In this document: in pieces, positions 11,704-63,675 of the stretch
How positions within the stretch are numbered: the stretch's first letter is position 1
Layout: each line of letters starts with the position of its first letter
Notes under the pieces: generated by a model
Told to the model about the DNA's origin: nothing
Databases searched by the model: none
Seen by the model: the letters and a program-made list of their open reading frames with translations, nothing else
NCBI GenBank assembly: GCA_965243135.1
Contig: OZ251539.1
Span: 2,496,001 to 2,560,000 of the forward strand
Direction: 5' to 3'
From: Alphaproteobacteria bacterium
GTDB taxonomy: Bacteria; Pseudomonadota; Alphaproteobacteria; MPNO01; UBA830
DNA length: 64,000 nt
Made by a program: the position numbers and the translations under genes

Positions 11704-14105
11704 CTGCCCTGTCATCACAAATCCCCTTCTGGACTGAGCAGGGGATGCGATCGTCCCGATTTCTTGATTTCCGCCAGATCCTCGTATGCCTGACAATAGC
11801 CGGAGAGATAGGAATAACCCTGCCAGATTTTCTGATGGCCGGGCGGCGGGTCGTGCTTGCGGTTGCGGTAGCCGGCCATGATGGCGACGATCAGCACCGC
11901 TTCTTTGAGCGTCCTCGGCTTCGGCGTTCTCGGCAGTTTCGTCGCGTAGTCTTCGATGACGAGCAGTTCCATGTCCGAGAACATGAGCCCGGCGGGGACG
12001 TCCGGCGTCTCGCGCGCCAGCAGCGCCATCAGCATGACGCGCCATGCGATGACTGCGTTGATCGCAATCACGCGTTCGAGGCGCGCTGCGGTGCGGTGGC
12101 CCGTTTCTTCGACCTTGCACCCGGACTTCAGCGTGCGATGCCAGTCTTCGATGCGCCATCTCAGGGCGTACCAACCCACGACCCGCATGGCGTCTTCGAC
12201 GGACGAAACGGCGACCGTGGTAAGCAGGAACCATTCGACCGGTTTGGCCCCTTCCGGCGGCTTCGGCTCGCTGATGTGAACGACCTGAACGGGAAGCGGC
12301 GCGGTTCCGCCCGACGTCGGCGGCAGAGAGACGGTCCGAATCTCCATGTCGGCGACGCGTTCCTTGCGCCCGTTCGTCGCCTTGCGTTTGCTGACCTTGG
12401 GCCGTTGGCTCAGGCGCGAGACCGTAAGTTTCCGGTGCCCTTGAACCGGCGCGGCGCGGACGCTGTCGAACAGCTTCTCCGTTTTCGACAACTTCCGGCT
12501 GTGCTTGGCGCGCACCAGAATGTCGATATTGCCGAGACGCCGCTGCTCGGCGAACATTTCGAAGAAGTCCGCTTCCCGGTCCATCACGCTGACCAGTTGC
12601 GTACCTTCGAGCCGCCGGGCCGCCTCGGCGCATTCGCGCAGCCCTCGAAGCCACCGTGCCGACTTGCGTTCTTCCGGCAGCTTGTCCTTGCCCGGCCGAG
12701 GCGCGTCGAACTCGAGCTTCAGCAGACCCAGCGGCAAGCCGGCGTCATCCACCGCCATCGTCGTGTGCAGATGAAGTCCGGCGGTCTTGGCGCTGGTCTG
12801 GTTGTGCCCAATTACGCCCAGGTCGTCGCACTGCGCACGCGTGGCGAAGTTCAGGTCGGTGCCGTCCTGAAGGCACAGAACCGTATCCCGTGTCTGCATT
12901 CGCCCGAGCGTGCGCTCCTTGTGCGGCGTCAGGATGTTTTCCGGCGTGACCGCCCCCGGCTCGTCTCGCGGACGGCAGGCGGTAAAACCCCGTCACTGCC
13001 GCCATGTTTCCGCCCGCCGCTACCGAGAAGGGAGCGTGCGGTGCCTCCGCCTGGGCATGGGCACTGTCGACCAGGCGCTTCGCCAGACGCTTGTCTCCCA
13101 ACGGCGCACCTCCGAACTCGTTCTCGGCCCAGCACTCGCGCGACAGCCCTTCGCCGACCGGCACCGGGAGGGCCGGCCGGGCGCTCAGCGTTGCCCGGCA
13201 ACCCGGTTCGAGCTCGTACATGTATATCTCTTTCATGGACTCGGCCGCCAGTCCTTTCCGGTCCTGCCGGCCGCGTCCGCGAGTTGCGCCCACATGCGTC
13301 CAGTTCGCCGCGCGGAGCGAGATCCCTAGGTGATGCGCCGGGTCGACAAAGGTCTCCACCAACCAGGGGCGATGGCCGTAGCGTTCCTCGAAGTCCTGCG
13401 CCATCGTCGTCAGCGACATGCTCAACACCTGTGACGCGAGATTGCGGCACTCGACGCCGGGCCGGATCAGAAAGCGGTTCAGCCCGACGATGCGGTGAAG
13501 GCGCCGCTCCCGCGTCTTGTCGTCCCAGCCGATCCAGTTGTCGCGCGCCGCCAGGCGCCGCGCCGAGGCGGCAAAACCCACCGCGCCGAGCCAGCCATGG
13601 GACGAACCCACGAGATAACGGCACTGATAACCAACCAGCACCGCCTTGCCGAGGGGGTGTTCCGTGATCATCAATTCGTTCCAGATTGCGCTCTGTGCAG
13701 GGTTCTGCACCGGGACCAACTGTAGCTCCTCGATGAGATCCACCCGTTCGGGAACGTCTACCGCGGGCGGCACCGGTTCCGGGTTGCGGCGCACCCGGCG
13801 GCCTCCGCTTCCTCGCGGTGGCGGCAGAGCAATCCGTCCGTCCGTCGCGAGAACGCCAAGAGCCGCGTTGCAACTACTGATCTGCGGACGCCCGCGGGCA
13901 TCGAAAAAGCCGAACTCGTGACAAACCCTGCGGCTGAGTTCGGCTCGCGAAAGTTGCGGTTCGGCAGACAGTAATCCGCCGACCCGCTGCAATGCCTCAG
14001 GCGTGCTCAGGCGTTGCTTGACAAGATTCTGCGTATCCATGGCGTCTTGGTGAATACGCGAATCGATTGTCTCTGTCCAGAGCCTTGTTTGTGTTCACAG
14101 GGCAG
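11704..14105 (-). mobile_element. IS4-family insertion sequence (2402 bp)
   Basis: Terminal inverted repeats CTGCCCTGTCATCACAAA (11704-11721) and CTGCCCTGTGAACACAAA (reverse of 14088-14105), 16/18 match; 8-bp direct repeat ACCTTGCT at 11696-11703 and 14106-14113. Confidence 0.9.
11715..14040 (-). pseudogene. IS4-family transposase with N-terminal DUF4338 domain, frameshifted near 12975
   Basis: N-part: DUF4338-like RDNWIGWD, NRFLIRP, LVETFVD, AANW, then Tn5-type WAENEFGGAPLGDKRL and GFYRL. C-part in another frame: QDGTDLNF, DREADF, YALRWRIEDWHRTLKSGC, PPG. Confidence 0.85.
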
Positions 14106-14395
14106 ACCTTGCTCGGGTGCAAAGACGGCAAGAAAGGCGGCCTTTTTCGCTTCGGCGACAAGGCGGCCACCTTGCGTATGCGTGGACCTTAACGCCCTGA
14201 TCGGCGCATCGTTACAATGGGCACGCTACCGCGCAGGTTCTATCGGGGATGACTGCGCGGCGAGTTCGTGACCATCACCGTGAAAATGGCCGCAATGGCC
14301 AAGGTCCTCGCCCGGCCGCTCCGGCAATGGCTGCTTGAGCCCGCTCAAGCAGCGGCTACCGTCGACAACATCGGTGCAAGGGCGGTGGAAGAGCG

Positions 14396-15201
14396 ATGAC
14401 CTTCGAGCGGCAGCCCACGGACAAGTGGCGCAAGGAGATCCCGGGTACGCGCTGGTTCAAGGCGGATCTGCACGTCCACACCATCGACGACCATCCGGGC
14501 GGTCGGGCAAAAATGCCTGCTGGCCTGTCCGGCGATCCAGCGGATCCGCAAACGCTATCGGGCTATGCACGACGCTTTCCGAAAGCCCTCGTCAAACGCG
14601 GCGTACAGGTCGTCGGCCTGACTCCGCATTCGCCGCGCGCGGGGATCGGCCTCCGGTATCCGGCCCGACGCGGCTGCGATATAGCCGCATTCGCCGCGCG
14701 CGGGGATCGGCCGTCGGCAGTTCAATCGCCGCGCCGACCGTTCAACCGCATTCGCCGCGCGCGGGGATCGGCCCCGAAACGAGCGCAGTCTGGCGCATCG
14801 TCGACGAATGGAACGGTGGAACCGACGACGACAGCGTTCCGTTCCGGGAAAAGATTTATGCCATATTCCCCGGATTCGAGCCGTCGCTTAAAGACGGTGA
14901 ATCAGGATTGCACCTTCTGTTCCTTTTCGATCCCGAGATCGGCCGCGATCATTACCTGAAAGCGTTCGACCTTGTCATGAGTGGCGTATCGCCTTGGCAC
15001 GCCGGAAAGTTGCAGATTGCTGGAAAGCGTGCCGAAAAGGCATTCGACGAGTTGGAGGAGTTTCGGGAACGGAAGTGCTCTGTTGCGGCCGGCGGAAATC
15101 GCGCGTGGAGTTCCATGGTTCTTGGCCCCTATATCGACGCAGAGAAGAGATTTTCCGGGGATCGAAAAGCTCAAGTGCTGCAATTCTTCGATCACGGGTA
15201 A
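14396..15201 (+). pseudogene. PHP-domain protein (N-terminus of TrlF/Ppl-like PHP-ATPase), disrupted by a mini-array and apparently truncated
   Basis: WFKADLHVHT PHP motif, VGLTPH, IFPGFE, GLHLLFLFDP; removing 122 bp of inserts joins the two frames into one 227-aa ORF. Confidence 0.75.
14624..14773 (+). CRISPR. Cas-less mini-array 1: 3 x 28-bp repeat, 2 x 33-bp spacers, inside a CDS
   Basis: CCGCATTCGCCGCGCGCGGGGATCGGCC at 14624, 14685 and 14746; spacers 14652-14684 and 14713-14745; GCGGGGAT-N3-CC 3' end as in type I-E repeats. Confidence 0.85.
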
Positions 15202-15269
15202 GCGTTCGCTACCCGGGGGACGAAAAAAATTTGCCCCGGGGACTGGAAACGATTCGCTGATCCCTGCGC

Positions 15270-15565
15270 CTTCATGGAGTTGGCGACACGCAGCCCGTCG
15301 GCTACGCCAATGGCTCTGTCGCAAGCACAAGGTGCGTAAAGGAAAGCATGCGCACTTTCCAAGCGAATGGAACGAAATAGGTCTTACACGCCTACACCGC
15401 AACGAAGAGCTTTCCGTGGGCGAAGGCATGACGAAGCGCGGGAAATCCGCACGTCCGGTTTGACGAGCGGGGACTGGAAACGTGGCCAAGGGAGCCGGAC
15501 CGAGGCCCGGAGCGAAAGCGACGGAACCCGGACCCTAAAGCTAACGCGCCAGTCCTCGACTCTAC
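15270..15565 (+). mobile_element. Group II intron 3' remnant (maturase C-terminus plus domains V/VI)
   Basis: RRLRQWLCRKHKV..IGLTRL maturase tail; GCGGGAAATCCGCACGTCCGGTTTGACGAGCGGGG domain V; CTCGACTCTAC 3' end at 15565. Confidence 0.85.
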
Positions 15566-15910
15566 CTCGACACGCTGGAGCGATTGCCGGCATACGTGGA
15601 CAGGCTTCACCGGCTCGCGGAGGACGCCGGGCGGGATCCCGCGTCGCTCCGGGTCATGTGGTTCACGTTGTGGTGGGGAACGGAACCGGGCGAGCCGCTT
15701 CGGCCGGCGGAGGCCAGTGCTCCGTTTCCCGGCGGCGACCGGCGCCTCCTGAGCGGCGGCACCCAGCGGATGAAGGACGACATGGCGGAGATGGAGGGGA
15801 TCGGCGTCGACTCCGTCATCGTCAACTTCGAGCGGGAAACCGTCGAGGACACGCTCGAAGGCATGGAGGTGTATGCGGCGGAGTTCATCGGGTCCGGAAC
15901 CGGCCTGTGA
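15566..15910 (+). pseudogene. C-terminal fragment of an LLM-class flavin-dependent oxidoreductase
   Basis: LDTLERL..AEDAGRDPASL..GVDSVIVNF..YAAEFI; begins exactly at the intron 3' end and lacks an N-terminus. Confidence 0.7.
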
Positions 15911-16479
15911 CCCGCAATCTCCGGCCGTGGAAGTTGCTGGGATCGAGAGAGATATTCGTCGTCCCCCGGCGGTTCTCGGTGTCCGCCCACGCGGTCGAGT
16001 TGCCCGGCGGCCGACGATACGAGCCCTACTACCGGGTCGATCTCGCCGATCAGGCCTGGGTGGCCGCGACGACGGAGGACGGCCGGTTCATCTGCCAGCG
16101 GCAGTACAAGCACGGGCCGGAGCGGGTCGCGCTCACCCTTCCCGGCGGGATCGTGGATCCGGGTGAGGAGCCCTTGGCTGCCGCCCGCCGGGAACTGCTC
16201 GAAGAGACGGGGTACGAATGTCGGGACTGGCGGCCTCTCGGCGCCTTCTGCCGCAACAACAACCAGCGCTGCGGCGAGGAGCATTTCTTCCTGGCGTCGA
16301 GCGGCGTCTGGAAGCAGGAGCCCGACCCGTCGACGAACCTGGAGGAGATCGAGACTGTGCTCATGACCCGCGACGAGCTGGCGCGGGCCGCGGCGAACGG
16401 CGAGGCGCCCGTGCTCGGCCATCTCGCCGGCATCCTGATGGCCCTTCGGCAACCGCCGCCGGAAGCCGGGAGATCGTGA
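15907..16479 (+). CDS. NUDIX hydrolase (ADP-ribose pyrophosphatase-like)
   Basis: PGGIVDPGEEPLAAARRELLEETGY Nudix box; RQYKHG; GTG at 15907. Confidence 0.9.
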   Translation: MTRNLRPWKLLGSREIFVVPRRFSVSAHAVELPGGRRYEPYYRVDLADQAWVAATTEDGRFICQRQYKHGPERVALTLPGGIVDPGEEPLAAARRELLEETGYECRDWRPLGAFCRNNNQRCGEEHFFLASSGVWKQEPDPSTNLEEIETVLMTRDELARAAANGEAPVLGHLAGILMALRQPPPEAGRS

Positions 16480-49731: not shown

Positions 49732-49881
49732 CGATTACCCGAGCGCGCGCGGCCGCGGGCGGAGTTTGAAGCGCCGTGACTTCGGTGTCGCCCGATTACC
49801 CGAGCGCGCGCGGCCGCGGGGGCAGGCCGCCCGCCGCGCCGTCGCTTTCTTTCCGATTACCCGAGCGCGCGCGGCCGCGGG
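49732..49881 (-). CRISPR. Cas-less mini-array 2: 3 x 28-bp repeat, 2 x 33-bp spacers
   Basis: CGATTACCCGAGCGCGCGCGGCCGCGGG at 49732, 49793 and 49854; spacers 49760-49792 and 49821-49853; both spacers start with G on the minus strand. Confidence 0.8.
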
Positions 49882-50458
49882 CATCGTCGTCAGCGACGCC
49901 CCAATGATTTTCGTTCGCCGGCGCTCCGCCTATCGAACGGCCTGACGCATGAATGCCCGGCAGGCCGCAAGGCCCTCGTCTGCCCGATTGATCTTGGACG
50001 AGGGAGCCGATCATGATCGTCAAGGACGGAACGATATTCGACGGCCCGAATCGCTGGAATGACCAAACGGTCGGTAAACGCGAGACGAAAAACGCACGGT
50101 CGACACTCGTCGTCGTCTGGCCGTCGAACTCGACAAAACCCGTACGTCGAACCGCCCGGACAACGACAGGCGTTCCGTGCGCAGGCGTCAGAAAAACAGG
50201 GAAAGGTCGTCGGGACAACTTCGGAGGTCGCTCACGGAGCAACTTCCGTCCCGCCGCGGGGGATCCGCCGGAATTCCCGCTCGCCGTCACCGGGAAAACA
50301 GGCGTGTTCGCGGCATGACTTACGGCGAGAGTCGCCGCCGCATCCACGATCGGAGACAGCAGGCCAAGTCTCTGGTATCTTCGGAGCGGAAAAAGCCTGA
50401 ACCTGCCCTTCGCTTGCGCAGGCTTTCCCTGCTTGCGCATTTGGAAACGGTCTGACGG

Positions 50459-63404: not shown

Positions 63405-63675
63405 CCGGGTTGTCGCCGAGCGCGGACTTTCCGGGTTGTCGCCGAGCGCGGACTTTCCGGGTTGTCGCCGAGCGCGGACTTTCCGGGTTGTCGCCGAGCG
63501 CGGACTTTCCGGATTGTCGCCGAGCGCGGACTTTCCGGATTGTCGCCGAGCGCGGACTTTCCGGATTGTCGCCGAGCGCGGACTTTCCGGATTGTCGCCG
63601 AGCGCGGACTTTCCGGATTGTCGCCGAGCGCGGACTTTCCGGATTGTCGCCGAGCGCGGACTTTCCGGATTGTCG
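63405..63675. repeat. 26-bp tandem repeat, 10 full copies plus 11 bp
   Basis: CCGG(G/A)TTGTCGCCGAGCGCGGACTTT from 63405; first four copies have G, the rest A. Confidence 0.97.

Follow-up and report, generated by a model that had tools for sequence, protein, structure and literature searches.

The origin of new CRISPR arrays is an open question, to which the laboratory has supplied an answer, off-target integration by Cas1-Cas2; one paper that uses the term 'neo-CRISPR arrays' (10.1101/148544) calls the natural evidence for it, from two other species, circumstantial. With the E. coli proteins, such integration has been described under overproduction of Cas1-Cas2 (PMC7054753, PMC11788318; also PMC6698737), and Nivala, Shipman and Church (2018, Nat Microbiol 3:310) are reported to have shown off-target integration by the E. 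coli I-E system that gives neo-CRISPR loci. The locus analyzed here is a mini-array of three repeats and two spacers inside a protein-coding gene, found within a 64,000-nucleotide stretch of DNA (the window; genome positions 2496001-2560000) of an alphaproteobacterial genome that consists of a single contig of 6.10 Mb with 65% G+C. Off-target type I-E Cas1-Cas2 integration of the 'neo-CRISPR' kind is very likely to have made this mini-array; catalysis by Cas1e-Cas2e is inferred, without an experiment.

The repeat is the 28-nt sequence CCGCATTCGCCGCGCGCGGGGATCGGCC, three exact copies of which are found on the + strand of the window, spaced 61 and 61 nt and giving a mini-array layout of 28+33+28+33+28. 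No further site for this sequence is present in the window even with up to three mismatches allowed, and 100 shuffles returned 0 matches (0 expected by chance). The elements of the mini-array, in window coordinates, are as follows.

14624-14651, + strand: repeat copy 1, native gene sequence coding PHSPRAGIG, in frame with the upstream part of the gene.
14652-14684, + strand: spacer 1, 33 nt, self-derived, with an exact 33/33 copy elsewhere on the chromosome.
14685-14712, + strand: repeat copy 2, a duplicate of the target 28-mer.
14713-14745, + strand: spacer 2, 33 nt, self-derived, with an exact 33/33 copy elsewhere on the chromosome.
14746-14773, + strand: repeat copy 3, which shares its frame with the gene part that follows.

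The frame that contains copy 1 runs from the ATG at 14396 and reads MTFERQ...WFKADLHVHT...VVGLTPHSPRAGIG, and the frame of copy 3 reads PHSPRAGIGPETSAVWRIVDEW... as far as the stop codon at 15199-15201; the upstream and downstream frames are not the same, 122 not being divisible by 3. Joining 14396-14651 to 14774-15201 in silico produces 684 nt, corresponding to 227 codons and one terminal stop. An earlier note, made from the sequence alone, had described the repeat as in-frame coding sequence present in three copies around two 33-nt inserts, and had proposed that deletion of 2 x 61 bp restores a 227-aa open reading frame; both claims held, and the two inserts have the sequences that the note had given for them. 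A search with the 21-nt core of the repeat (up to two mismatches) found no site in the 6.10-Mb genome beyond the three copies in the mini-array, the exact 28-mer has 0 matches in the metagenome contig collection, and an Rfam search of window positions 13900-16000 gave 0 matches at E values up to 1. Membership of the repeat in a larger, cas-linked array elsewhere would have counted against the earlier reading; the repeat belongs to no such array in this genome.

The 28-mer is native coding sequence of the gene, and it was single-copy before its duplication. The downstream gene part has 693 related proteins at E <=0.001, the best 120 of which were used for comparison; these are mostly ~920 residues long and 60-79% identical, and many of them cover the query from its first residue. 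Across the junction (residues 65-105) the alignment is ungapped for 117/120 homologues, the other three beginning downstream of it, and every N-terminus inspected (40/40) reads ...GLTPHSPRxxxxP(E/D)TSAVW... without a break. The closest homologue (P0003, 922 aa) carries VVGLTPHSPRAGTGPETSAVWRIVEEW at the junction, and its residues 1-226 align with the repaired 227-aa protein without a gap and with 81% identity. In tblastn, residues 1-85 of the same homologue match window 14396-14650 at 86% identity, and a second segment, which ends with residue 226 at window position 15195, contains PHSPRAG again; residues 77-85 are matched twice, once by each half of the split gene. At the DNA level, the site is single-copy in 9/9 homologous loci of the species genome collection, the nearest of which (L011, from an alphaproteobacterial MAG) has 23/28 bases identical over the repeat. 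In fact, the genome itself contains an intact paralogue (1098667-1101411, 54% identical to P0003) that reads through the site uninterrupted. The claim that the repeat is ordinary gene sequence that was duplicated, and not a decayed array, is supported by the homologues, the DNA loci and the geometry of the insert, and the expectation that homologues would be uninterrupted at TPHSPR..G held, the observed form being TPHSPRAGxGPETSAVW.

The interrupted gene is accompanied by mobile and multi-copy elements, and the features in question, again in window coordinates, are these.

14396-14623, + strand: 5' part of a TrlF-family PHP-ATPase remnant, codons 1-76, with the DLHVHT histidine motif (tblastn of P0003; NF045780).
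14774-15201, + strand: remaining part of the gene remnant; full-length relatives are matched only as far as residue 226 of 922, after which a stop codon comes.
15197-15289 and 15284-15566, no strand assigned: multi-copy short repeat elements of two kinds (blastn against the own genome: 47 matches, <=98% identity).
11704-14105, - strand: insertion sequence lying upstream; a second copy, 100% identical, is found at genome 4018330-4020731.

The match of the 5' part to NCBIfam NF045780 (TrlF_fam_ATP) has an E value of 1.4e-6 and is far under the cut-off (27.3 bits for the first gene half and 15.2 for the second, against a cut-off of 350). The full-length relatives match this family end to end, at 327.8 bits, slightly below the same cut-off, and match the anti-phage protein Ppl solely in their C-terminal ATPase part. 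A Pfam search of the two gene halves gave nothing useful. Compared with TrlF (NF045780) and Ppl, the window copy keeps the first ~226 of ~920 residues and is missing the ATPase part, and the remaining ~700 residues of P0003 were found nowhere in the genome by tblastn. The window copy is a remnant of a TrlF family member without the ATPase part, and is not a working member of the family. TrlF takes its name from a Photorhabdus temperature-restriction operon, and the literature examined gives no phage role, nor a proven role, for it. The identification of the gene as a PHP-ATPase gene, as made in the earlier note, held, the family being TrlF; its description in the note as likely anti-phage is inferred from family resemblance alone, and such a role can be called no more than possible.

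The multi-copy short elements start exactly where the gene homology ends, at the truncation point (window 15197), and have no Rfam family match; contigs from other sequencing runs show loose ends at 15197/15198. The upstream insertion sequence, of which additional copies exist at 93% and 88% identity, contains one open reading frame with a DruA-like Pfam domain and Tnp_DNA_bind. The order of the truncation and the insertions of the mini-array is undetermined from these data, and neither order is favored.

A true type I-E array is located at genome 5302435-5307163, and contains 78 repeats of 28 nt, all identical, with 77 spacers between them, of which 75 are 33 nt and 2 are 34 nt long; a degenerate terminal repeat is present at its far end. 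The open frames adjoining this array are cas3, cse1, cse2, cas7, cas5, cas6e, cas1e and cas2e (operon at genome 5.307-5.316 Mb), and Cas1e and Cas2e score 301 and 95 bits, each over its cut-off. The canonical repeat, in cas orientation, is GCTTCCCCCGCACACGCGGGGATGTACC. Placed in register with it, the 28-mer of the gene (+ strand) matches at 15/28 positions, including a 9-nt block, CGCGGGGAT (positions 15-23), and the terminal CC, with the 5' half unmatched; 0.6% of random 28-mers of this genome reach 15 or more matches in either orientation. For the canonical repeat, folding gives the expected hairpin, a stem of 6 bp and a loop of 4 nt (-13.1 kcal/mol, z -2.9), whereas the mini-array repeat has no such hairpin (z +0.68), from which we infer that processing by Cas6e is unlikely. 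The mini-array is likewise inferred to yield no working crRNA, an inference that draws also on the tolerance of an exact self spacer whose donor has an AA flank. The mini-array, at 2.5106 Mb, is ~2.8 Mb from the cas operon, the sequence upstream of it is the gene's own coding sequence, and no leader-like or IHF-like motif was seen upstream of copy 1 in an inspection by eye only.

The genome has three Cas1 genes in all, and three arrays, of period ~66, 76-79 and 61. The other two Cas1 genes each lie beside an array (genome 5263941-5272800 and 5282676-5287867; periods ~66 and 76-79), and all three CRISPR loci fall within 55 kb. In comparison with the true I-E array of the same genome, the mini-array has the same 28-nt repeat and 33-nt spacer lengths, and shares with it, in register, both CGCGGGGAT and the CC at the end of the repeat, but it differs in that it is not beside cas genes, lacks the hairpin, consists of coding repeats and contains self-derived spacers, whereas 75/77 spacers of the true array are without a long self match.

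Both inserts of the mini-array are self DNA. With up to six mismatches allowed, each spacer has one other match in the genome, and this is perfect (33/33). The donor of spacer 1 is genome 4935965-4935997 (+), which is preceded by ..GCCAA and has a PAM-like AA flank; the donor of spacer 2 is genome 362269-362301 (-), preceded by ..TTATT, that is, by TT and not AA. The surroundings of the donors are ordinary chromosome, one lying between aldolase-II-like and sulfatase genes and the other upstream of a Sel1-repeat gene. Because each spacer exactly reproduces one distant site of this chromosome, the integration occurred in this lineage. Protospacers, the search for which had been suggested as a check, were found, but on the cell's own chromosome, and the claim that the two 33-mers are foreign failed.

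Taking the mini-arrays of the whole genome together (described below), a self donor was identified for 14/26 spacers, with up to three mismatches allowed in a 29-nt core and the duplicate locus 1922849 excluded, and AA lies directly 5' of 5/14 of these donors; the frequency of the AA dinucleotide in the genome is 4.1%. The PAM of the true array is unset: when the array in its entirety was compared by megablast with the phage and plasmid collections, nothing matched. In the true array, only 2/77 spacers have a self match of at least 28 nt. Counted from the cas2 side, these are T43 (33/33 at genome 4133743-4133775) and T41 (28 nt at genome 5244043-5244070), and both have GAA|G opposite the expected PAM side, as though the spacers had been inserted flipped; a flipped insertion could account for the tolerance of both. 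The distribution of the identified donors is uneven, 6/14 being located at genome 4.45-4.94 Mb and 5 of these in 4.65-4.94 Mb, and this remains unexplained. The cumulative GC skew runs counter to its trend at 4.6-4.9 Mb. The possibility that the donor-rich region at 4.6-4.95 Mb is a conjugative element was considered and gained no support, with no T4SS coupling-protein or VirB4 matches found there.

The mini-array is very probably one of about ten ectopic loci in this genome. When the genome was scanned for stretches of 28 nt that agree at 26 or more positions with the sequence a fixed distance away, offset 61 gave 14 clusters, 2 of them the true array, leaving 12 loci outside it; offsets 55-59 gave 0 clusters, offset 60 gave 2 and offset 62 gave 1 (the true array). 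The 12 loci contain 2 to 11 copies of a 28-29-nt unit, which is specific to each locus, with a CG-alternating core that is common to the units. In silico models of the empty site identified uninterrupted paralogues for the loci at 973350, 1912721/1922849, 2208565, 2510624 (the window mini-array), 2742314 and 2992257, of which 1912721 and 1922849, ~10 kb apart, are one event copied by segmental duplication. The locus at 2992257-2992346 has two repeat copies, with DLYCARGEN in frame, and lies in one member of a multi-copy insertion sequence; in a sister member, at 2793976-2794063, the empty site is exact and the flanks are identical on either side, so that the two form a before/after pair.

Several further observations concern individual loci. 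A second mini-array within the window (49732-49882; genome 2545732-2545881) has the geometry of the first with another unit: CGATTACCCGAGCGCGCGCGGCCGCGGG, 28 nt long, is present three times without a mismatch, around two inserts of 33 nt. For insert 1, the core is matched exactly by a self donor at genome 3798573-3798601, and no donor for insert 2 was found in the genome. No empty site is available for this second mini-array from same-genus genomes, which are 76-78% identical and align to the neighboring gene alone. The largest ectopic array (genome 2742314-2742953) consists of 11 units of 28 nt, which come in two variants, and of 10 spacers, among which spacers 7 and 9 are identical and 4 have self donors; a paralogue at 4504465-4504878 has the site once, and this array therefore also arose from ordinary sequence. 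The loci at 973350 and 1912721/1922849 belong to one multi-copy repeat family and have nearly the same 28-mer (CGCATGTCGTCGCGCGCGCGGGT...) with different spacers, which suggests a hotspot for integration. The period of 61 is also found at genome 385672, 2208565, 4477870 and 5621021, where a 28-nt unit particular to each locus is present in 2-4 copies; a spacer with a self donor is present in 3/4 of these loci. At genome 4812992-4813140, ~0.49 Mb from the cas locus, there are three repeat copies that are 25/28 identical to the canonical repeat, one of the spacers having a self donor with one mismatch; it is possible that this locus is not ectopic but an orphan true array. At window 63405-63675, a 26-nt unit is repeated in tandem 10.4 times, with 99% matches.

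In the mechanism that we propose, prespacers of 33 nt would have been cut from the cell's own chromosome, and Cas1e-Cas2e would have integrated one, on two occasions, into the 28-bp pseudo-repeat of the gene. The target in the TrlF-family PHP-ATPase gene partly resembles the I-E repeat, and would have been attacked, as in a true array, by two strand transfers on opposite strands, 28 bp apart. Gap repair would then duplicate the 28-mer, such that the first event would give repeat-spacer-repeat and the second would give three repeats and two spacers. The added 122 nt shift the frame by +2, which puts the 5' and 3' parts of the gene remnant out of frame with each other. The number of integration events, two, is inferred. 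The geometry of the insert, the native origin of the repeat, the self origin of the spacers, the presence of a matching, complete I-E system and the recurrence of the same pattern at about ten loci are all shown. Evidence against this mechanism is provided by the TT at the PAM position of the spacer 2 donor, and by the repeat identity of just 15/28 with its unmatched 5' half; the lack of a leader-like or IHF-like motif to the eye, and of an empty-site allele or a contig with fewer spacers in the genomes and runs compared, also counts against it. The earlier proposal that CRISPR adaptation machinery inserted spacers into the gene is supported, with the correction that the case is not isolated but one of about ten such loci.

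A bolder reading, which as a whole we regard as having only a slight edge over its negation, is that the genome holds a natural record of CRISPR arrays born from non-CRISPR DNA. In this view, a low-fidelity or once-hyperactive I-E module would have seeded the ~ten self-spacer arrays, one of which (2742314-2742953) would have grown to 11 repeats, and would have acted as an endogenous insertional mutagen, hitting a defence-like gene remnant, insertion sequences and other repeats. The self spacers would be tolerated as the repeats are not processed to working crRNA.

The insertions are also seen outside the assembled genome. In contigs (not reads) from four other public runs, the filled form is present wherever the locus is covered: run X10 covers 14244-14742 and run X9 covers 14076-14681 and 14716-15225, both without a difference, run X11, from another study, covers 14415-14667, and run X1, a sponge metagenome from a further study, covers 14694-15226 with 4 base changes and a 6-nt deletion. 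The diverged strain of run X1 retains repeat 2, spacer 2, repeat 3 and the truncation, and since this strain is still filled, the insertions are older than that divergence and fixed in the sampled strains. No contig joint that skips 61 or 122 nt was found in the four runs; contigs drop rare variants, and little is said by this result of rare forms. As far as contigs alone can tell, there is no sign of ongoing spacer gain or loss at the site, and the variation in spacer number for which the earlier note had recommended a check was not found in the contigs of these four runs (raw reads were not used). A joint 14493>14921 (side 28) in runs X9 and X10 was disregarded as likely a repeat or another organism. 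The C-terminal part of the window gene is present in 0/60 related genomes, being found only in the source genome and in its paralogue, and with the gene in none of these 60 relatives, no empty-site allele of this very locus was found.

Three other explanations were considered. The first is that the mini-array had already formed in a different organism and was brought in, together with the gene fragment, by horizontal transfer. In favor of this are the absence of the gene from 60 relatives and its position between an insertion sequence and mobile repeats. However, both spacers are exact 33/33 copies of single sites on this very chromosome, and about ten more such loci are present in the same genome together with the matching I-E system, and transfer of a finished array is very unlikely.

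The second explanation, which we consider very unlikely as well, is that a non-CRISPR process (slippage, tandem duplication, or an integrase or transposon with a 28-bp duplication) or one of the two other Cas1 systems was responsible. The presence of three Cas1 genes, and the proneness of GC-rich repeats to slippage, speak for it. Against slippage, neither insert is related to the other or to the gene, and each exactly reproduces a distant locus; against the other Cas1 systems, their arrays have periods of ~66 and 76-79, not 61. An excess of clusters, moreover, is seen only at offset 61 among the offsets that are not multiples of 3. The third, a decayed or orphan true CRISPR array lying by chance beside gene fragments, for which the 61-bp period and the I-E-like look of the GC-rich, partly palindromic repeat might be cited, is all but excluded by a repeat that is conserved coding sequence, single-copy and continuous with its flanks in the homologues (117/120) and DNA loci (9/9), by its limited match (15/28) to the canonical repeat without a hairpin, and by the gapless 226-residue alignment that removal of 122 nt restores.

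With off-target Cas1e-Cas2e integration as the preferred explanation, the locus supplies the before state (homologues that read through the site), the after state (three repeats and two spacers) and both donors. Together with about ten parallel cases and the matching I-E system, this opens to direct test how a natural I-E integrase chooses its targets, what adaptation costs in fitness through gene disruption and self spacers, and how arrays are born. Also significant is a caution for annotation, namely that a small 'CRISPR array' within a gene need not be a false positive and can be a genuine scar of integration.

No case of natural, multi-locus ectopic spacer integration was found in the literature searched, which was a limited library. 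The closest described counterpart is the E. coli neo-CRISPR, with which the mini-array has in common the I-E subtype, integration outside the array and duplication of the target around a spacer-sized insert, as well as the capacity of repeated integrations to build a small array. The two differ in that Cas1-Cas2 was overproduced in E. coli, whereas the insertions described here are natural and fixed in strains from several studies; in that the donors are identified here, and the pre-insertion state can be read from homologues; and in that one event here lies in a coding gene, and about ten loci are found in one genome. Very likely, then, the mini-array is a natural and unusually well documented instance of a kind of event known from the laboratory.
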